Positions 1 through 8,241 of a stretch of DNA of 64,000 nucleotides are shown here, one piece after another (the first letter of the stretch is position 1; every line of letters begins with the position of its first letter). A model generated the notes under the pieces. It was not told where the DNA came from and did no database searches. It saw only the letters and a list, made by a program, of their open reading frames with translations. A program made the position numbers and the translations under genes. The stretch comes from Escherichia phage VEc74, in sequence record MT932213.1; one strand, given 5' to 3'.

Positions 1-260
1 GAAATGAAATCAGTAAATTCAACATCAAAATCGCATGTCAATGAATAAATTGATTCAATACTGTTAATAAGTATTCCAGGACGTATTAAAGACTTTTTAC
101 CTCTGGAAAATCTTCCAGAAAGACTTTCATCAGTTTCATATGAAGAACCCCAATAATAATTACGTCCTTCTGCCATGCGTTTAAGAGCATTTAGCAATTG
201 GTCTGGAACATCAACCTGTCTTTGGAACTCTTCAAACATTGAATTGAAATCACTTTGCAT
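1..260 (-). CDS. hypothetical protein, 3'-truncated at window edge (N-terminus MQSDFNSMFEEFQRQVDVPDQLLNALKRMAEGRNYYWGSSYETDESLSGR)
   Basis: Manual minus-strand translation from ATG at 258-260 (alternative ATG 237-239) stays open to position 3; the 3' end lies beyond the window start. Confidence 0.35.
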   Translation of the reverse strand, partial: MQSDFNSMFEEFQRQVDVPDQLLNALKRMAEGRNYYWGSSYETDESLSGRFSRGKKSLIRPGILINSIESIYSLTCDFDVEFTDFI

Positions 261-287
261 TTTCATTCCTATTTACTCCAAGTAATA

Positions 288-301
288 GGGGCCGAAGCCC
301 C
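288..301 (-). terminator. GC hairpin GGGGCTTCGGCCCC (UUCG tetraloop) downstream of ORF 308..901
   Basis: Perfect inverted repeat read directly; no strong T-tract, so it may act as an RNA-stability hairpin rather than a terminator. Confidence 0.45.
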
Positions 302-307
302 TTATCA

Positions 308-901
308 TTATTTCAGAGAATTAATATATTCCTGAACATCGGCAGAGGTAGTTTCAACCCCAGAAATATTACCATTAAAGGTTTCAACTCGAGCAAGAGT
401 ATCTTCAATATCAACCTTAGTTAGCGCTGCGATTTCAACTACATCATCGGCAGTACTAATTCCAAGGGCATTTGCCGCACGAGTTTCACGGATATATTCC
501 AATTTAACTGCAAGTTCTTGGCGAGCATCATCTAACTCAACTACTTTCTTGGCGATTTCAATTCGCATTTCAGCATAACCATCAGCTTTAGTAGTCAACT
601 GTTCAGCTGTTCGACGATATAACAAGCCAAGTTTAGCATGCATTGTTACATCTTGACCTTCGGAAAGAAGCTTGCGAATTTCACGCTCTTTTGATTCGGC
701 TTGCTTATTCTTTTCGACAATAAGTTCACGAATACGCTTTTCTTCATTAATAGATTTAACGGAAGCAGTTTTTAGATCTTTAATCTTATCAAGTAGTTTT
801 GCTGCTGCAGCAGTATACTGTTCTTCAACAGATAGATTTTTAGCCATAGCAGAACCAAGTTTAGTGCGAATAAACTCAACAATTTTCTTCAGTGTGTTCA
901 T
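308..901 (-). CDS. hypothetical early protein, 197 aa
   Basis: Six-frame ORF; AAGGAAA ribosome-binding site and GTTTAC/TATAAT elements upstream (962-968, 941-950); no motif recognised. Confidence 0.65.
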
Positions 902-944
902 AGTATTTCCTTAGGTTGATTAAGATTTAAAATCCGTGAGAGTA

Positions 945-1121
945 TTATACTCCGGATAGTTTGTAAACTATTTCAACATCGCCTTTTGCTGCTTTATAAC
1001 CTTCAGCCCAAGATACAACCGAGTTTTTATCTGAAGATTCAAATTCTGGCATTGGGCTTTCGCCAATGTTCACGCAGTATGTTTCTTCATTTTCGTCGAA
1101 CCAAATAATTAAAGTAGTCAT
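945..1121 (-). CDS. small hypothetical protein, 58 aa (MTTLIIWFDENEETYCVNIGESPMPEF...)
   Basis: Manual translation; GGAGAAATAA ribosome-binding site immediately upstream of ATG at 1119-1121; below the ORF-track size cut-off. Confidence 0.4.
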   Translation of the reverse strand: MTTLIIWFDENEETYCVNIGESPMPEFESSDKNSVVSWAEGYKAAKGDVEIVYKLSGV

Positions 1122-1189
1122 TTATTTCTCCGTTTCTGTATTTGTTTTGATAAGTCTATAATAACACCGTCCTTGGTGTTTGTACACAA

Positions 1190-1453
1190 TTATTTCATAT
1201 TATTGAAATATTCTTCTGCGATTTCGTCGTTATCATGGTAAACTTTAGAAGACAGTTTAACATAACCTTCTGCCGTGAACATATTAATCACAACCTTTAC
1301 AGTATACCACTGACCATCTTCATTACCCATTACTGCATAGGTTTCAAACATCGGATGGTCAGGACCGATAACTTTAATATCATTCACTGTACGACCAAAA
1401 TCTTCTGAAACGCATTTCATAAAGAAGTTGAACAGTTCACCGTAATTATCCAT
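1190..1453 (-). CDS. hypothetical early protein, about 87 aa (start trimmed to MDNYGELF)
   Basis: ORF-track 1190..1516 begins at a TTG inside the promoter; ATG at 1451-1453 sits directly after the conserved leader tttattctcc and the early promoter at 1497-1526. Confidence 0.55.
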   Translation of the reverse strand: MDNYGELFNFFMKCVSEDFGRTVNDIKVIGPDHPMFETYAVMGNEDGQWYTVKVVINMFTAEGYVKLSSKVYHDNDEIAEEYFNNMK

Positions 1454-1496
1454 TTTATTCTCCAAGTTGTTTTCTGTATCAGTAGTTGATAGTTGT

Positions 1497-1526
1497 ATAG
1501 TACCATGGAAGGACAAGGATGTAAAC
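1497..1526 (-). promoter_or_regulatory. T4-type early promoter (GTTTAC, 18-nt spacer, TACTAT) with conserved leader
   Basis: Minus strand reads GTTTAC atccttgtccttccatgg TACTAT; same module repeated upstream of the Ip genes. Confidence 0.6.
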
Positions 1527-1659
1527 TGTTTTGTGAAAAAATTTTTAAAAGTTTTAGGGAATTCTAGGGGCAGGGAGGGGCAATTAAAAGATAGGATAAT
1601 ATATTATAAAGGATAGAAACTAAATGATGCCTAGAGATGTCTGGAAAGGCCTAGATACC

Positions 1660-1687
1660 AAAAAGCCCCAACCTTTCGGTCGGGGCT
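1660..1687 (-). terminator. rho-independent terminator closing the tRNA/small RNA transcription unit
   Basis: Minus strand reads AGCCCCGACCGAAAGGTTGGGGCT followed by TTTTT. Confidence 0.7.
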
Positions 1688-1738
1688 AAGCCTTGCGGCA
1701 ACCTTGTCGGGGTTCCACCTGCTAAGGCAAGTGTTTGT

Positions 1739-1830
1739 ACGAAACGCCGGGATTCGAACCCGGTTATTAAGTAGTTGACGCTACTCAATATTTTTAAAAG
1801 GCCATATCTCGACCATATCCGAACGTTCCG
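1739..1830 (-). ncRNA. tRNA-like element with non-canonical D and anticodon arms (possible degenerate tRNA or small stable RNA)
   Basis: Canonical T-arm CCGGG-TTCGAAT-CCCGG and a 7-bp acceptor pairing (CGGAACG/CGTTTCG with one G-U), but the internal 58 nt do not fold as standard D and anticodon arms. Confidence 0.3.
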
Positions 1831-2003
1831 TCAAAAACGCTACTCGGCTTACGGCAAAGATATTTCCTCGAATCGATAATTCGGTGCGCCGTTTCTGCTG
1901 TGATATAAGGGGACATTAACAAAACATAAAGATTTATTAATGCCAGTCCTTAAACAGGGAACATCAGTCCGACGACTTGCCGGTAGCGACCCGGCTTCTT
2001 GTC

Positions 2004-2079
2004 TGGTCGAGGCAGTAGGGATCGAACCTACGACCCAGGACTTAGAAGGTCCTTGCTCTTCCTTCTGAGCTATGCCTCG
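2004..2079 (-). tRNA. tRNA-Arg (anticodon TCT)
   Basis: Hand-folded cloverleaf: acceptor CGAGGCA/TGCCTCG, D-stem GCTC/GAGC, anticodon loop CTTCTAA, T-arm GTAGG-TTCGATC-CCTAC, CCA encoded. Confidence 0.85.
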
Positions 2080-2083
2080 TATT

Positions 2084-2158
2084 TGGCGGACGTGATAGGA
2101 TTCGAACCTATAACCAATCGCTTAACAGGCGATCGCTCTGCCATTGAGCTACACATCC
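2084..2158 (-). tRNA. tRNA-Asn (anticodon GTT)
   Basis: Hand-folded: acceptor GGATGTG/CACGTCC, D-stem GCTC/GAGC, anticodon loop CTGTTAA, T-arm ATAGG-TTCGAAT-CCTAT, CCA encoded. Confidence 0.8.
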
Positions 2159-2162
2159 AAAT

Positions 2163-2249
2163 TGGTGGGGAGTGGTGGAGTCGAACCACCCGAGTCGCAA
2201 TGACAATGGATTTACAGTCCACACCGCTACCTCTACGGGATAACTCCCC
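2163..2249 (-). tRNA. tRNA-Tyr candidate (anticodon GTA), type II with long variable arm
   Basis: Acceptor GGGGAGT/ACTCCCC, anticodon stem-loop GTGGA-CTGTAAA-TCCAT, T-arm GGTGG-TTCGACT-CCACC, CCA encoded; D-arm pairing is irregular in my manual fold. Confidence 0.55.
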
Positions 2250-2259
2250 CAAATTAATT

Positions 2260-2334
2260 TGGTGGCCCTGGGTGGAATTGAACCACCATCTGGCGATTAT
2301 GAGTCGCTTGCTTGAACCTTCCAGCTACAGGGCC
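2260..2334 (-). tRNA. tRNA with CAT anticodon (Met or Ile2; T4 counterpart is tRNA-Ile)
   Basis: Acceptor GGCCCTG/CAGGGCC, anticodon loop CTCATAA, T-arm GGTGG-TTCAATT-CCACC, CCA encoded; 1-nt spacer to tRNA-Thr. Confidence 0.8.
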
Positions 2335-2335
2335 T

Positions 2336-2411
2336 TGGTGCTGATTGACGGAATCGAACCGCCGACCTTCTCATTACAAGTGAGTTGCTCTACCTACTAA
2401 GCTAAATCAGC
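2336..2411 (-). tRNA. tRNA-Thr (anticodon TGT)
   Basis: Acceptor GCTGATT/AATCAGC, D-stem GCTT/GAGC, anticodon loop CTTGTAA, T-arm GGCGG-TTCGATT-CCGTC, CCA encoded. Confidence 0.85.
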
Positions 2412-2416
2412 AAAAC

Positions 2417-2506
2417 TGGCGGAGGCGATAGGATTTGAACCTATGAGTCGCCGGAGCGACTGCCGGTTTTCAAGACCGGTGCATTAAACCACTCTGCCAC
2501 GCCTCC
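2417..2506 (-). tRNA. tRNA-Ser (anticodon TGA), type II
   Basis: Acceptor GGAGGCG/CGCCTCC, 3-bp D-stem, anticodon stem-loop CCGGT-CTTGAAA-ACCGG, long variable arm, T-arm ATAGG-TTCAAAT-CCTAT, CCA encoded. Confidence 0.85.
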
Positions 2507-2508
2507 AG

Positions 2509-2582
2509 TCTCCGCGGCAGGATTTGAACCTGCGACATTCTGCTCCCAAAGCAGACGCTCTACCAAACTGAGCTACACGGAG
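2509..2582 (-). tRNA. tRNA-Pro (anticodon TGG)
   Basis: Acceptor CTCCGTG/CGCGGAG, D-stem GCTC/GAGC, anticodon stem-loop TCTGC-TTTGGGA-GCAGA, T-arm GCAGG-TTCAAAT-CCTGC; CCA not encoded; 2-nt spacer to tRNA-Ser (dimeric precursor arrangement as in T4). Confidence 0.85.
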
Positions 2583-2592
2583 TAAATTAAAT

Positions 2593-2666
<74 letters not shown>

Positions 2667-2671
2667 AAATT

Positions 2672-2758
2672 TGGTGCGAGAAGTGGGACTCGAACCCACA
2701 AGGAAATCATTCCGCAGCATTTTAAGTGCTGTGCCTTTACCAATTTGGCCATTCTCGC
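2672..2758 (-). tRNA. tRNA-Leu (anticodon TAA), type II
   Basis: Acceptor GCGAGAA/TTCTCGC, 3-bp D-stem, anticodon stem-loop CAGCA-CTTAAAA-TGCTG, long variable arm, T-arm GTGGG-TTCGAGT-CCCAC, CCA encoded. Confidence 0.85.
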
Positions 2759-2764
2759 GCTATA

Positions 2765-3373
2765 TTATTTATTACGTGAAAAAGACTGTTCTATCAATTC
2801 TGGACACTTTCGTTCTATCCATTTTCTAGCTTTTTGTGGGCTTATACCTATTATTTTAGCAGCTTTACTAACCCATCCAAATTTAGAATAATCGATTTTA
2901 ACTAATTCTTCGTAAATTTCATCAGTTAAAATCTTTTCATTAATATTTACCAGTAAATGATATAATTTATTATCATTAGCAATTTTAATGAATCTTTTAT
3001 AGTTTCCGCCTTTACTTAAGCCTAATGAAGTAATTGCAGATGATATAGTAGCCGAATTTAATAGTGCGTTTAAAATTTCTTCATCACTAACATTATAACG
3101 CTTTTTATTATTTTTAATATTTTTACCAGCAAAAGTATCAGTTTGCGAATGGCAGTTTGGACATAATAATCTTAAATTTGATTTAAGATGATTTTTGTTA
3201 TTTCCATCAATATGGTCTAATTGCAGAACAATATGCTTATTTTGCCATTTTGAAATTTTACAAATTGCACACTCATATGGAAAAATATTTTCTTTTATTA
3301 TTTTGTCTTTCAGCTTTCCTGTACTAAAATTTGGATGTTTTCCTTCAAAAATTTCAGCTAATTTAGTATCCAT
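2765..3373 (-). CDS. HNH-family homing endonuclease, about 202 aa
   Basis: Motif LQLDHIDGNNKNHLKSNLRLLCPNCH (His-Asn-His with CxxC) plus upstream CxxC (YECAICK); stop codon 7 nt from the 5' end of tRNA-Leu; start trimmed from the TTG of ORF 2765..3397 to ATG (MDTKL). Confidence 0.75.
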   Translation of the reverse strand: MDTKLAEIFEGKHPNFSTGKLKDKIIKENIFPYECAICKISKWQNKHIVLQLDHIDGNNKNHLKSNLRLLCPNCHSQTDTFAGKNIKNNKKRYNVSDEEILNALLNSATISSAITSLGLSKGGNYKRFIKIANDNKLYHLLVNINEKILTDEIYEELVKIDYSKFGWVSKAAKIIGISPQKARKWIERKCPELIEQSFSRNK

Positions 3374-3472
3374 AATATGATTCCCAATTATTAACAAAGG
3401 CTCTCAAATAAGAACCCTTGATGATAGAGGGTATTAATCAGTGCGGTATGAGTTAATAATAACAAATAATTC

Positions 3473-3997
3473 TTAAAGCAAATTAAACATTTTAACGGTC
3501 GGCAAAACAATTTCTTCTTCTATATAAGAGTATTTAACACTCTCAACTACACGCAAAAAATCATAATCATAATACTCAGAAGCATTACCTAAAATATTAG
3601 TAAGTCCTTCAAGCACTTTATTACCATTCACAAAGAATAAGTCAAATACACGTTCTTCGTCTTCTTCGGATTTATTACCAAGGTCAACTTCTATGTCAAA
3701 GACCTTTTTAATGAATTCTGGATAAAGTTGTTCTGAGAACAGTCCTTCAACCAAGTATTCATAAATAAAAAGCGATTGCTCGCTGAACAAGCCATTACCA
3801 CAATAACGTTCAGCTTTAGTACTAGAATGTCTGCTTTTAAACTTCTTTAAAAGATATTGGAACTGTAAGATTTCATGCTCTTCTACGCCAAACAGTGTTT
3901 TAGTTTTATAATTGTCACCATCATTTTCCCAGGTAGTGACATCAATTACGTAACCCTGCGGAATTGTAGTACCTAAACAAATATTCATTTTCACCAC
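3473..3997 (-). CDS. hypothetical protein, 174 aa
   Basis: Six-frame ORF, overlaps next ORF by 7 nt (operon-like); no motif recognised. Confidence 0.55.
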   Translation of the reverse strand: MVKMNICLGTTIPQGYVIDVTTWENDGDNYKTKTLFGVEEHEILQFQYLLKKFKSRHSSTKAERYCGNGLFSEQSLFIYEYLVEGLFSEQLYPEFIKKVFDIEVDLGNKSEEDEERVFDLFFVNGNKVLEGLTNILGNASEYYDYDFLRVVESVKYSYIEEEIVLPTVKMFNLL

Positions 3998-4281
3998 GCT
4001 GCATTAATATAAGTATATTTAATACATTCAAGACTTAAAGGATTCTTGAAAATATCATATTCAAGAGGACCTTTTTCTGTTTCAATAAAGAAATCAAAAT
4101 TTACTGTATTAAATTTACGGTCTTCCTTCACTAATTTAACCTGAGAAGATGAACGGTCAATGTAAACCTTTTCAACTTCAAAACATGTTAAAATGCCATA
4201 ATCATCAATCAAGGCTTTAGCTGCTTCTTGATCATATTTATATCCATTTTCAACGGATGATACTTTCGCATAAAGAATCAT
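3991..4281 (-). CDS. hypothetical protein, 96 aa
   Basis: Six-frame ORF, tightly packed with neighbours. Confidence 0.5.
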   Translation of the reverse strand: MILYAKVSSVENGYKYDQEAAKALIDDYGILTCFEVEKVYIDRSSSQVKLVKEDRKFNTVNFDFFIETEKGPLEYDIFKNPLSLECIKYTYINAAW

Positions 4282-4283
4282 TA

Positions 4284-4706
4284 TCAGCCTTCATCAACAA
4301 TAGTATGAGTATGGGCATTTACGATTTGCCACCAATCAAAGCGATTAGAACCATACATCGGTTTGTTTTCATTTTCTTTGATAATATCACGGAGTTCATC
4401 TTCGGTAGCGGCTTTCGCGATTAAATCAGCATATCCACCACGAGGATAATAATTATCACCTGCAAAAAGTAAAAAATTTGGTGTAATATTATTGAACTCT
4501 TCAAGAGTAATAACTGTTCCTGATGGTAGTTGAACAATCTCTACATAGTTATATCCTAATTTTTGAGCAGCATCTACTGCTTCAAGCAGAGTATCATGAG
4601 CCCGTCCTATTTGGCAATTTGGCTTTTTAGATGGATTAGCCTGATAATCCGCGTACACTTTATACATTCTATTCACCTTTAGAAATTTTATCCATAACGA
4701 TAGCAA
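4284..4706 (-). CDS. hypothetical protein, 140 aa (possibly 127 aa from MYKVYADYQ)
   Basis: Six-frame ORF; its 5' end overlaps ORF 4669..4854, so the internal ATG at 4665-4667 is a plausible true start. Confidence 0.55.
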   Translation of the reverse strand: MLSLWIKFLKVNRMYKVYADYQANPSKKPNCQIGRAHDTLLEAVDAAQKLGYNYVEIVQLPSGTVITLEEFNNITPNFLLFAGDNYYPRGGYADLIAKAATEDELRDIIKENENKPMYGSNRFDWWQIVNAHTHTIVDEG

Positions 4707-4854
4707 TTAAACCAATTAAAAATGCTACTACAAGTGAAAACACATTTTCTGCTGTAGTTAATAATCCGCATATAAATCCAACAAACATTGAAAAACTAAA
4801 AGCGGAAGCAGAAATTGCAATAGCAGCATTTCGAATTAATTCACAACGTTTCAT
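4669..4854 (-). CDS. small hydrophobic (membrane-like) protein, 61 aa
   Basis: Strongly hydrophobic sequence (AIAISASAFSFSMFVGFICGLL...LVVAFLIGLIAIV); preceded by the conserved leader and early promoter at 4883-4912. Confidence 0.5.
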   Translation of the reverse strand: MKRCELIRNAAIAISASAFSFSMFVGFICGLLTTAENVFSLVVAFLIGLIAIVMDKISKGE

Positions 4855-4882
4855 TTTATTCTCCTCAGTAGTTGATAGGGTA

Positions 4883-4912
4883 ATAGTATCACAACTAAAA
4901 CCCTATGTAAAC
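4883..4912 (-). promoter_or_regulatory. T4-type early promoter with stem-loop leader
   Basis: Minus strand reads GTTTAC, 18 nt, TACTAT, followed by leader ...ctatcaactactgaggagaataaaATG. Confidence 0.6.
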
Positions 4913-4915
4913 AAT

Positions 4916-5140
4916 TTATTCAACACCAGCGGCTTTCAAAAGTTTTTTAAGATTGGCAACACCTTGAGCAGAAAATGTGACCTTGCCACCTTTTTCACTG
5001 ATAGAACCAACCAATTTAGCAAGTTTATCATTAGGAATTTTTTTAAAATCAGACAATGTTCCATCAAAGGTTTTTGAAACAAAAGGCAGTTCGTCTTCGC
5101 GTCTTTTAGCTTCTACAATAAATTCTTTAGATGTTTTCAT
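4916..5140 (-). CDS. internal-protein-like (Ip) protein, 74 aa, N-terminal capsid-targeting sequence MKTSKEFIVE
   Basis: N-terminus matches the T4 internal-protein targeting consensus MKT(Y/F)(Q/K)EFI.E with Glu at a gp21 protease-type cleavage position; own early promoter. Confidence 0.7.
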   Translation of the reverse strand: MKTSKEFIVEAKRREDELPFVSKTFDGTLSDFKKIPNDKLAKLVGSISEKGGKVTFSAQGVANLKKLLKAAGVE

Positions 5141-5168
5141 TTTATTCTCCTCAGTAGTTGATAGGGTA

Positions 5169-5198
5169 ATAATATCACTACCCCATCTAAAAGTAAAC
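5169..5198 (-). promoter_or_regulatory. T4-type early promoter with stem-loop leader
   Basis: Minus strand reads GTTTAC, 18 nt, TATTAT; RBS GAGGAG before the ATG at 5140. Confidence 0.6.
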
Positions 5199-5208
5199 GG
5201 TTTATAAA

Positions 5209-5517
5209 CTATTTTATTCCGCGTGATGCAATTGTGTTCTGCCGTTTAACGCCAGTTTGTTTAAAGTCATGATTGTCGATTTGATCGGTACGAGCAACTC
5301 CGAATGATGATTTGATCTTAGCTTTAGATCCTTTAGTTATAGAAATAAACATCTCGGAAGCCCCTTTCTTAAAGTCCGAGGCGATTACTTCAACGCCGTT
5401 CTTAGCAAGTGACTTCAGAATTGCCTCCGCATACTCATCATCAAGACTCGCCTGAGTATTAATAACGAATGTCTTTGGCGCAGCCGCTTCATTGATAAAT
5501 TCTTTAAATGTTTTCAT
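5209..5517 (-). CDS. internal-protein-like (Ip) protein, 102 aa, N-terminus MKTFKEFINEAA
   Basis: Capsid-targeting-like N-terminus; divergent body; own early promoter. Confidence 0.7.
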   Translation of the reverse strand: MKTFKEFINEAAAPKTFVINTQASLDDEYAEAILKSLAKNGVEVIASDFKKGASEMFISITKGSKAKIKSSFGVARTDQIDNHDFKQTGVKRQNTIASRGIK

Positions 5518-5547
5518 TTTATTTTCCTAATTAATTTTGATGAGATA

Positions 5548-5577
5548 ATAGTATCACTACCCTATTTAAAAGTAAAC
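5548..5577 (-). promoter_or_regulatory. T4-type early promoter
   Basis: Minus strand reads GTTTAC, 18 nt, TACTAT; the -35 overlaps the stop codon of the upstream Ip-like gene. Confidence 0.6.
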
Positions 5578-5850
5578 TCATTTTAAATAAATTGCGTATT
5601 TTTTATAACCCGCTGACTCATGACGAAGACCCTTATCATTAGCAAAACGCTCAATGTTGTTAATTTGATTCTGATCAAGTTCAGAGATGTCAAACACGAA
5701 AAAGTTACGTTTGTTACCAACTGTTATATAGTCAGTTAAATCAATATCATATAGGTAATTGATGTCAGCAATCAAAGTCTTGACAGCTTTGCTAATTTTT
5801 ACTTTTTCGTTAAAAGCAGCTTCAGCAATAAATTCTTGATACGTTTTCAT
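5578..5850 (-). CDS. internal-protein-like (Ip) protein, 90 aa, N-terminus MKTYQEFIAEAAF
   Basis: ORF-track 5578..5910 extends into the promoter; true ATG at 5848-5850 follows the conserved leader; N-terminus matches the T4 IPI-type targeting sequence as I recall it. Confidence 0.7.
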   Translation of the reverse strand: MKTYQEFIAEAAFNEKVKISKAVKTLIADINYLYDIDLTDYITVGNKRNFFVFDISELDQNQINNIERFANDKGLRHESAGYKKYAIYLK

Positions 5851-5878
5851 TTTATTCTCCTCAGTAGTTGATAGGATA

Positions 5879-5908
5879 ATAGTATCACTACTAAAACCCC
5901 GTGTAAAC
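5879..5908 (-). promoter_or_regulatory. T4-type early promoter
   Basis: Minus strand reads GTTTAC, 18 nt, TACTAT. Confidence 0.6.
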
Positions 5909-5920
5909 AACTTTGTGAAA

Positions 5921-6178
5921 TTATTTTAAATCTTCTAATCGTTTCTTCATCTTAGAACCGTTCTTAGCGATTTCGCCTGCATCAGAGCATAATGCTAAAA
6001 GCGCTTTAACTTTAGTTTGGTCTCCTTTAAAAGATGAAGGATCAACAGCAGCAGCAAGTTCTTTAATACGAGAGAAAAGACGCTCAGCTTCAGCTAAAGC
6101 CATTCCAAGCTTTACTTCCATACCGTGGGAAGATTCAGTAATAGTAGTTTTTGTAGCAAACTCTTTGAAAGTTTTCAT
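5921..6178 (-). CDS. internal-protein-like (Ip) protein, 85 aa, N-terminus MKTFKEFATKTTITE
   Basis: Capsid-targeting-like N-terminus; own early promoter. Confidence 0.65.
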   Translation of the reverse strand: MKTFKEFATKTTITESSHGMEVKLGMALAEAERLFSRIKELAAAVDPSSFKGDQTKVKALLALCSDAGEIAKNGSKMKKRLEDLK

Positions 6179-6208
6179 TTTATTTTCCTAATTAATTTTG
6201 ATGAGGTA

Positions 6209-6238
6209 ATAGTATCACTACCTCATCAGCATGTAAAC
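6209..6238 (-). promoter_or_regulatory. T4-type early promoter with hairpin GATGAGGTA...TACCTCATC around the -10
   Basis: Minus strand reads GTTTAC, 18 nt, TACTAT; inverted repeat read directly. Confidence 0.6.
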
Positions 6239-6250
6239 AACTTTGTGAAA

Positions 6251-6935
<685 letters not shown>

Positions 6936-6936
<1 letters not shown>

Positions 6937-7661
6937 TATAGTACCTTTAGTGTATTTTTAATTTTAGAAAAAAGTTCTTCAAGAGAACCATCGTTTGTAA
7001 TTACTAAATCGCCATCACGAATTGGCAATCCAGCTTCTGTAATATGTGTATCATTGGATTTTTGACCAGGACGAACTACATGAATTACTGTAGCACCCAT
7101 CGCCCTAGCCGCATCCATTTCATGATCTTGACGGGTATCAGGAACGATATAATAATCATAACCTGAGTTAAATTTATCAAGATAATCTAAAGCAAATAAT
7201 TTTACCCAGTACATGCGGTCGAAGTTATTAACAATCAAATCCGTACCTAGGGCTTGCATCAGACGACGGACTGACCATTGATCTTCAATATTATTTATAA
7301 CGTCAATAATCTTGTTAAATGCTACGGAATTAACTGATTCTTGTCCTTCGTCATCAAAAACAAACACACCTTTAATTGGGCTTTTACCATTAAGATAGCA
7401 AAATGCTTGTTCCATAATGGTGATTACTTCTAATTTAGTCAGATTTAAATTAGTCTCACGATCATAGTCAATTCCTTCAAACTCTTTACGAGTTAAGCAA
7501 GGATAGTCAGTGTTTGCTGCAAATACTCCCCATGCATAAGCCAATGCATCCTTAATAGGACCAGCAAGTTGGTATTTAATTGCAGAATAATTGCTCATGA
7601 TAAAATCAGCAGTAGTATCTTTTCCACTACGCTTTACACCGCTTAAAAAGATTAGTTTCAT
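6936..7661 (-). CDS. 1: deoxynucleoside monophosphate kinase (gp1), 241 aa
   Basis: N-terminus MKLIFLSGVKRSGKDTTADF with P-loop GVKRSGKDT; start trimmed from ORF 6936..7700. Confidence 0.9.
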
Positions 7662-7710
7662 GTGTTTCTCCTCAAATTTAATTAAGATTATAACACACAA
7701 AACTGAAGCA

Positions 7711-8241
7711 TTAAACTTCTGCTATAATTTTTCCATCTTTTTCTACTTGAAAATAGGTGTAAGGAATCGTTGCTGTACATACTAAAGCCGGGTCTGAATC
7801 TTCTGTGTAGCTAAATTCTACTTCAGACAGGTCAGAAACCCAAGGCTTATAAAAATTTATTGACATCACGATTTCAGTTTTGCTATTATCTAAAATGTAA
7901 AGCGTAATGTATTCAGGACCTGTTTTTTGGGCAGTATTTTCACCTGTAAGATAGTTGCTAGTTCCTAGCATCCATTCATACATTCCTATCCATGACTTAA
8001 GTTCTTCATCAACTATAAATCTCACGATGAGTGGATCGTACTCAAATGTAGCACCTGGACGTTGTGCTCGACCAAGTCCAAACGGCCCAGTCACGGTATC
8101 AGTAACAGGTATTCTAATTCCTGGAATAGGAACTGACTGAGCATTTAAAGTAAAAGCAGATGTAGTATTACTATGTGGTATTGATACTACAAAGTTAGTT
8201 GTATTTGCTTGGTTAAAAATTTGTTGCAGAGCTTGCGACAT
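7711..8241 (-). CDS. 3: tail completion / sheath stabiliser gp3, 176 aa
   Basis: Size and gene order (1-3-2-4) as in T4; start set at MSQALQQ (ATG 8239-8241). Confidence 0.8.
   Translation of the reverse strand: MSQALQQIFNQANTTNFVVSIPHSNTTSAFTLNAQSVPIPGIRIPVTDTVTGPFGLGRAQRPGATFEYDPLIVRFIVDEELKSWIGMYEWMLGTSNYLTGENTAQKTGPEYITLYILDNSKTEIVMSINFYKPWVSDLSEVEFSYTEDSDPALVCTATIPYTYFQVEKDGKIIAEV

Follow-up and report, generated by a model that had tools for sequence, protein, structure and literature searches.

F-TflI and F-TflII are HNH site-specific endonucleases of the tRNA region of phage T5, and the activity of their neighbour F-TflIV was reportedly described by Akulenko in 2004. Free-standing endonuclease genes are also well known from the T-even phages, where they comprise SegA-G and MobA-E (PMC2988022). 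In T4 × T2L crosses, SegB showed ~100% inheritance with loss of the tRNA markers of the recipient, and the enzyme recognised a tRNA T-arm motif (PMC2330249). In the same paper, tRNA processing at the end of segB was proposed to limit its expression, and the same was mentioned for the F-Tfl genes of T5 (PMC2330249). A 2026 study reported a broad association between SegB and tRNA genes; phage tRNA genes are now seen as counter-measures to host tRNA-cutting enzymes, and a role in their amplification has been attributed to SegB (PMC13096335). Here, an HNH endonuclease gene at the head of the tRNA operon of Escherichia phage VEc74 is analyzed. It lies in a stretch of 64,000 nucleotides (nt) of sequence record MT932213.1, called the window below, and all positions are those of the window unless another sequence is named. 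Judging by sequence comparison, this is probably the gene of a free-standing HNH homing endonuclease that took the place of tRNA-Gln(UUG), the first gene of the T-even tRNA operon, and homes in co-infection. The gene is like SegB and the F-Tfl enzymes in kind, and the general phenomenon is already known. A search of the full-text literature, the coverage of which leaves out most subscription journals, found no description of the exchange of tRNA-Gln for an HNH gene.

The phage belongs to the genus Tequatrovirus. The region has matches in more than 1000 phage records; none of them is identical, and the best has ~96% identity over 94% of the first 25 kb. ARAGORN detected nine tRNA genes in the 64-kb window, all on the minus strand at 2004–2758, and their order (5'→3' on the transcript) is Leu(UAA), Gly, Pro, Ser, Thr, "Met"(CAT), Tyr, Asn, and Arg. 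The first of them, tRNA-Leu(UAA), occupies 2672..2758 (−) and was found by both ARAGORN and Rfam (64 bits). No tRNA-Gln was detected by ARAGORN in the whole 64 kb, the Rfam scan of positions 1–8000 at E ≤ 0.1 revealed no tRNA beyond the ARAGORN set, and a BLAST comparison of the T4 tRNA-Gln with the window gave merely chance matches of 10–15 nt. Directly upstream of tRNA-Leu, an HNH open reading frame (ORF) is present, which in its longest form, with a TTG start, covers 2765..3397 (−). The TTG at 3397 was rejected as the start, since it falls in a leader sequence that HNH-less alleles also have. Translation almost certainly begins at the ATG at 3373 and yields a protein of 202 amino acids (aa), because relatives annotate this 202-aa form and PHROG 14736 aligns with residues 1–202 of 202. 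The HNH endonuclease ORF (202 aa plus stop) is thus placed at 2765..3373 (−), in agreement with the ORF list, the PHROG match, the homologue alignments, and the AlphaFold model. Its TAA stop codon is located at 2767..2765 and the 5' end of tRNA-Leu at 2758; therefore, the gap between them is 6 nt (TATAGC). The initial annotation, made from the sequence alone, had described an HNH-class endonuclease gene immediately before tRNA-Leu in a cluster devoid of tRNA-Gln. The ORF exists and matches PHROG 14736 over its full length, the tRNA scans agree on the missing tRNA-Gln, and the abutment stands, with the proposed distance of 7 nt corrected to 6 nt. It had also given the T4 arrangement correctly: the order there is Gln-Leu-Gly-Pro-Ser-Thr-Ile-segB-Arg, and segB encodes a GIY-YIG enzyme.

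Evidence for the replacement comes from the junctions of the inserted sequence. The window, teqhad, and CM8, in which the HNH gene is present, were aligned with Sf23 and T4, in which it is absent, and the alignment was read along the direction of transcription. The two alleles are identical through the leader and TGGGAAT(T/C)A, which corresponds to nucleotides 1–9 of tRNA-Gln, and then diverge; identity returns at AG-C-GCGAGAATGG, that is, the last two nucleotides of tRNA-Gln, a 1-nt spacer, and tRNA-Leu. Between these points lies a cassette of 616 nt at 2762..3377 (−), with a GC content of 26% versus 35.9% for the window. It stands in place of nucleotides 10–71 (62 nt) of tRNA-Gln, so that 62 of the 73 nt of this gene are gone in the carriers. 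The 5' scar, comprising the first 9 nt of tRNA-Gln, is located at 3378..3386 (−) and reads TGGGAATCA here and TGGGAATTA in T4 and teqhad; positions 50–58 of the T4 query, which correspond to it, match the HNH-carrying records at 100%. The 3' scar at 2759..2761 (−) consists of the AG of tRNA-Gln (2761..2760) and the C of the Gln–Leu spacer (2759), where the query match resumes at 121–123. The acceptor-arm nucleotides of the 5' scar have no complementary 3' arm in the HNH allele. Since the scars are explicable only as a remnant, they argue for tRNA-Gln as the ancestral state: judging from the junctions, the tRNA-Gln(UUG) gene was present first, and the Tequatrovirus HNH allele is derived. The earlier suggestion of an invasion distinct from that of T4 and possibly linked to the loss of tRNA-Gln is supported in both parts: the HNH protein is unrelated to SegB, and the junction alignment with T4 and the relatives gives a one-for-one replacement. 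Neither a tRNA-Gln in the window nor an ancestral position of the HNH gene at this site was found.

The two alleles can be followed through the GenBank phage collection. The HNH ORF was found in 63 phage records, one copy in each, with a nucleotide identity of 97.9–99.8%. A query made of the T4 tRNA-Gln/Leu junction is covered in full in 448 records; in the HNH carriers, the same query matches with its flanks alone, which end exactly at positions 58 and 121. When the window allele is used as a query over both junctions, it aligns as a single piece in the same 63 records, while ~450 other records give two flanks only, in a 187-bp span with the annotation tRNA-Gln / tRNA-Leu. The body of tRNA-Gln is kept in none of the HNH records (0/63). 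The HNH allele is a minority (63/514 matching records, ~12%), where the counts include GenBank/RefSeq duplicates and thus do not represent independent phages. A scan of IMG/VR with a conserved 22-mer of the left flank yielded three loci, all of them tRNA-Gln alleles, which are too few for statistics. The locus therefore has what is characteristic of the homing class, namely a presence/absence polymorphism at a fixed site, a precise empty-site allele, and identical junctions. All 63 HNH copies are full length, and many are 100% identical as proteins.

The surroundings of the cassette vary among its carriers. An ORF of phrog_2290 is present upstream in some of them and absent in others; teqhad and KarlGJung have tRNA-His; HY03 also carries a T4-type segB; CM8 has a SegB-like gene in the tRNA-Pro slot, and Lutter has another ORF in the tRNA-Thr slot. 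When six HNH-positive phages are compared with the window, the cassette shows 97.9–99.8% identity and the neighbouring trna.2 and trna.3 genes 85–97%. The trna.2 gene of the window is 99.0% identical to that of the HNH-less Sf23 versus 93.5% to that of the HNH-positive phiD1; thus, the presence of the cassette is not tied to the flanking haplotype. Such a distribution would be expected of a mobile element, and ordinary recombination could give the same.

The HNH-less Tequatroviruses are themselves of two kinds. They have two tRNA-Gln(UUG) alleles, the anticodon stems of which are wholly different yet fully compensatory: TAGCA/TGCTA in the T4 type (L004 6459-6531) and CTGGA/TCCAG in the Sf23 type (L002 3319-3391). 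Most matches of the T4 tRNA-Gln/Leu junction query (323 records) fall into the class of ~93% identity. The two stems may have arisen, for instance, by escape from an endonuclease or an anticodon nuclease.

The protein is a full-length match to PHROG 14736 "HNH endonuclease" (E = 5e-124), and 13 further HNH PHROGs match its N-terminal part. In alignments of 21 and 40 homologues, the zinc ligands C35, C38, C71, and C74 (two CxxC pairs) are invariant, as are the catalytic H54, N66, and H75, together with N73; D53 is present in at least 90% of the sequences. The C-terminal segment G166-W167...P179-Q180 is conserved too. The AlphaFold model has a mean predicted local distance difference test score (pLDDT) of 90.7 and contains a beta-beta-alpha core at residues 51–75, followed by two small helical bundles; the beta-beta-alpha-metal fold of HNH / His-Me finger nucleases (PF01844 type) is recognisable in it. 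The bundles are small helical domains resembling a helix-turn-helix (HTH) at about residues 97–134 and 151–189. The protein is thus predicted to combine a nuclease domain with DNA-binding modules, as free-standing homing endonucleases usually do. A sequence search of the PDB gave nothing meaningful, its best hit (E = 0.39) being spurious. The protein has no match to the GIY-YIG domain, while T4 SegB and the SegB-like protein of CM8 do match PF01541. Dozens of GenBank records annotate the gene as "HNH endonuclease", and identical proteins there bear the names "HNH endonuclease", "HNH homing endonuclease", or "F-TflIV".

Homologues were searched for in a collection of 5.8 billion proteins. The nearest relatives outside Tequatrovirus have 68% and 58% identity over the full length. 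Three such relatives are encoded by T4-like contigs downstream of genes 2, 3, 1, 57A, 57B, and trna.4-trna.2, and their position is likewise the head of the tRNA cluster. Since homologues of 58–68% identity hold this position in other T4-like genera, the tie of the family to the head of the tRNA cluster is old. The contig with the 68% homologue, L008, is that of a Marfavirus-like Klebsiella phage and has the order Met-Gln-HNH, and its HNH-less relative PWKp18 has Met-Gln-Asn. In the alignment, tRNA-Asn is precisely replaced by the HNH gene in L008, which makes this a second replacement event. The tRNA-Gln of L008 (3911-3986, compared with L011 1613-1685) has many differences in the anticodon stem and the T arm, and the surroundings are ~97% identical. 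The diverged tRNA-Gln beside the HNH gene of L008 is likely to be a co-conversion tract from a divergent donor. For the contigs L009 and L010, no HNH-less relative close enough to define an empty site was found.

Five more homologues, with about 40–49% identity, were located. The stop codons of P0007 and P0008 overlap a tRNA-Lys gene by 10 nt, and the gene of P0023 is flanked by tRNA-Gln and tRNA-Asp, with 6 nt between it and the latter; for P0080, tRNA genes are found ~500 nt downstream, and for P0035, there is no tRNA nearby. Since distant homologues do so too, abutting a tRNA gene can be regarded as a trait of the family and not as a peculiarity of the window. Embedding in a tRNA array was found for the window, T5, L008, L009, L010, L017, L019, L020, and L024; the exception is L022/L023, with no tRNA nearby. 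In T5-like and Gordonia phages, too, several tblastn matches coincide in part with annotated tRNAs. Metagenomic tRNA arrays with HNH homologues are located at L017/L018 2501-3936, L019 2501-3135, and L020/L021 2390-3252; the homologues, of 40–45% identity, have a stop codon that either overlaps the following tRNA (10 nt) or comes within 6 nt of it. In L017, the HNH homologue is followed by a SegE-like GIY-YIG ORF that ends 1 nt before tRNA-His; thus, endonuclease genes and tRNA genes alternate there, as in T5.

The closest characterised relative of the HNH protein is T5 hegA/F-TflIV, with 34.7% identity over residues 16–184 (84% of the query; E = 5e-15). The hegA gene lies in the tRNA cluster of T5, with its start 24 nt downstream of tRNA-Ile2. 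Both proteins are encoded by free-standing genes in a tRNA cluster and have the same HNH core motif, and the homology reaches beyond this core, as the alignment includes the C-terminal tryptophan/HTH segment. Unlike the window protein, F-TflIV has an extra N-terminal HTH-like extension, is without the middle domain, and belongs to a siphovirus of another family; in addition, replacement of a tRNA gene is evidenced for the window HNH gene but not for its T5 counterpart. T4 SegB shares the operon and the lifestyle with the HNH gene, and both ORFs end where the following tRNA is processed. SegB sits between tRNA genes, where relatives have Tyr and Asn, and targets the sequence of tRNA genes (PMC2330249). 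However, SegB is a GIY-YIG enzyme without significant similarity to the HNH protein (BLASTP E = 2.8), it occupies the Ile/Arg slot instead of the Gln slot, and its homing is experimentally proven, whereas the window HNH protein is known from its sequence. The T4 MobA-E proteins are of the same PF01844-type His-Me finger group as the window protein (PMC5714182), and their genes, too, are free-standing between other genes and patchily distributed among the T-even phages (PMC2988022). Similarity of the Mob proteins to the window HNH protein appears to be undetectable at tblastn E ≤ 1e-3, as can be gathered indirectly from the fact that 252 phage records were matched, versus more than 1000 Tequatrovirus-like records carrying mob genes. 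The mob genes lie between protein-coding genes and none of them replaces a tRNA, in contrast to the HNH gene in the place of tRNA-Gln.

A T4 middle promoter consists of a MotA box and a −10 element. The element at 3456..3482 (−), upstream of the HNH gene, fits this pattern: the MotA-box-like TTTGCTTTA (3482..3474) is followed by a 12-nt spacer and the −10-like TATTAT (3461..3456), which suggests a promoter of the tRNA operon. The element is common to the HNH-less alleles, and the same 27 nt are annotated as "promoter" in Lutter (L013 2892-2918). A scan with the sigma-70 consensus gave nothing useful at the HNH/tRNA locus. Further downstream, at 3396..3419 (−), both the minimum free energy and the centroid folds contain a leader hairpin (AAGGGUUCUUAUUUGAGAGCCUUU) with an 11-bp stem and a loop region that varies between phages; it also precedes tRNA-Gln in HNH-less phages. 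The leader fold is no more stable than that of shuffled sequence (z = −0.52); given this value, sequestering of the ribosome-binding site by the hairpin, as in segB and I-TevI, is not claimed. The GGGA of the 5' tRNA-Gln scar, 8 nt upstream of the ATG, could act as a weak Shine-Dalgarno sequence.

We propose the following course of events for the homing of this gene. The HNH gene would be the leading cistron of the tRNA operon and would be transcribed from the middle-type promoter that normally drives tRNA-Gln. The cut of RNase P at the 5' end of tRNA-Leu would leave an mRNA with 6 nt past the stop codon and no protective structure, and this release of the mRNA would probably keep expression low. 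In co-infection with a relative bearing tRNA-Gln, the enzyme would nick or cut in or next to the tRNA-Gln gene, and recombinational repair off the HNH-positive genome would copy the cassette in and delete tRNA-Gln. The HNH-positive genome would be immune if the target lies within the deleted 62 nt.

Several results weigh against homing by an active enzyme. The Pfam HNH model gives the protein 17.3 bits, which is below the gathering threshold of 21.4, although this can be understood as the score of a divergent subfamily, because PHROG 14736 matches over the full length. Foldseek, run with the whole chain against the PDB, revealed no significant full-length match. The high identity of the cassettes could result from one recent acquisition and ordinary recombination; no co-conversion tract is visible in Tequatrovirus, where the leader and tRNA-Leu flanks are too conserved; and the Shine-Dalgarno sequence is weak. 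Possibly, the cassette is passive or defunct, having entered once by illegitimate recombination and spread since then by general recombination or by trans-homing on the breaks of other endonucleases, such as SegB. The means for this exist: SegB cleaves many of the tRNA genes in the cluster, with the whole region being co-converted as a result (PMC2330249), HY03 has both segB and the HNH gene, and trans-homing, of the kind that MobE provides for I-TevIII, is documented in T4 (PMC2790892). The weak translation signals, with a poor Shine-Dalgarno sequence and no 3' stabiliser, also fit a passive gene. Against a passive gene, all 63 of the 63 copies are full length with every catalytic and zinc residue kept. 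The homologues of 40–68% identity are intact as well and likewise reside in tRNA arrays, which speaks for an active protein maintained by selection over a long time. We consider a passive cassette unlikely.

It is improbable that the nuclease has been co-opted for the exclusion of competitors, the degradation of host DNA, or an action on the tRNA operon, with the loss of tRNA-Gln being incidental. Homing endonucleases of T-even phages do cause marker exclusion (PMC2330249, PMC2988022), and SegB has recently been tied to counter-defence through the amplification of tRNA genes (PMC13096335); however, the HNH gene is missing from ~88% of the related records and is therefore dispensable, and its sequence points to a nuclease and DNA binding, nothing further. 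The opposite order of events, with the HNH gene ancestral at the site and tRNA-Gln gained later in most Tequatroviruses, is hardly credible. The homologues of 58–68% identity, which other T4-like genera carry at the head of their tRNA clusters, would agree with it, but it is effectively refuted by the scars (9 nt on the 5' side and AG on the 3' side, with no complementary acceptor strand). The GC content of the cassette is foreign, and the homologue of the Klebsiella phage adjoins an intact tRNA-Gln and replaces a different tRNA.

Replacement of a tRNA gene by an ORF is not restricted to tRNA-Gln. The slots taken are that of Gln by the HNH gene, that of Pro by a SegB-like gene in CM8, that of Thr by a 160-aa ORF in Lutter, and that of Tyr-Asn by segB in T4. 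In the Shigella phage CM8 (L003 3355-3963), a 202-aa SegB-like GIY-YIG ORF with PF01541 and NUMOD3 lies exactly in the slot of tRNA-Pro in T4 and the window, which corresponds to window positions 2508-2582, and ends ~9 nt before tRNA-Ser. Since CM8 carries both cassettes, HNH and SegB-like, endonuclease genes have cost it tRNA-Pro as well as tRNA-Gln. In Lutter, the 160-aa ORF (L013 4005-4487, equivalent to window 2336-2411) replaces tRNA-Thr from nucleotide 17 on, and the first 16 nt are kept. It belongs to phrog_16521, "unknown function"; over its last 110 residues, it shares 33% identity with the C-terminal end of the SegB-like protein of CM8 (E = 1e-15), and its N-terminus differs from that of the latter.

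A C-terminal HTH motif is similar in the window HNH protein, the CM8 SegB-like protein, and the Lutter ORF, despite their different nuclease domains. In the window protein, it comprises residues 161–184 (window 2822-2893), DYSKFGWVSKAAKIIGISPQKARK, and in the CM8 protein residues 171–194, DFSKRGELSKYAKHIGVSHTQAKR; 12 of the 24 positions are identical. The similarity hints at a shuffled DNA-targeting module. As a tentative extension, HNH cassettes, GIY-YIG cassettes, and those with a third N-terminal type might share this HTH targeting module, be specialised for the tRNA arrays of phages, and remove tRNA genes one by one, leaving the 5' end as a scar. If this were true, selfish endonucleases would be among the main forces that shape the tRNA sets of T4-like phages, in place of codon usage or host range, and they would pull against the selection for phage tRNAs as a counter-defence versus host anticodon nucleases. 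The HNH locus itself appears to represent the force opposite to the amplification of tRNA genes, with a selfish nuclease gene deleting a tRNA gene while spreading. As a case of a phage tRNA gene overwritten by a mobile nuclease gene, the locus is clean and useful but rather ordinary, and it is no surprise. With its two alleles, the site can serve as a natural test system for HNH homing in glucosyl-hydroxymethylcytosine DNA, for the recognition of a target in a tRNA gene, and for the cost of tRNA loss; one of the HNH carriers, Bas37/KarlGJung, belongs to the BASEL phages and is publicly available.

The other tRNA genes of the operon, Gly, Pro, Ser, Thr, Ile(CAU), Tyr, Asn, and Arg, occupy 2004..2666 (−) according to ARAGORN and Rfam. 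The tRNA at 2260-2334 (−), called tRNA-Met(CAT) by ARAGORN, has a counterpart annotated as tRNA-Ile(CAU) in T4, Lutter, and KarlGJung. The end of the operon at 1664..1999 (−) was assigned by homology to T4 and contains rnaD (1999..1883 (−), 86% to T4) and rnaC (species 1 RNA; 1876..1738 (−), 99% to T4), followed by a hairpin resembling an intrinsic terminator (1687..1664 (−)); there is an Rfam family for neither rnaC nor rnaD. Position 11 of tRNA-Leu (window 2748) is C here and T in teqhad, CM8, Sf23, and T4. This substitution would turn the U11-G24 wobble of the D-stem into a Watson-Crick pair, and its effect is probably neutral. Finally, four successive small ORFs starting with MKT(S/F/Y)(K/Q)EF... 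can be noted at window 4916-6178 (−), between trna.4 and 57B. Such a start acts as the signal that targets T4 internal proteins (IPI-like) to the capsid, and the region is an expanded, variable internal-protein locus.

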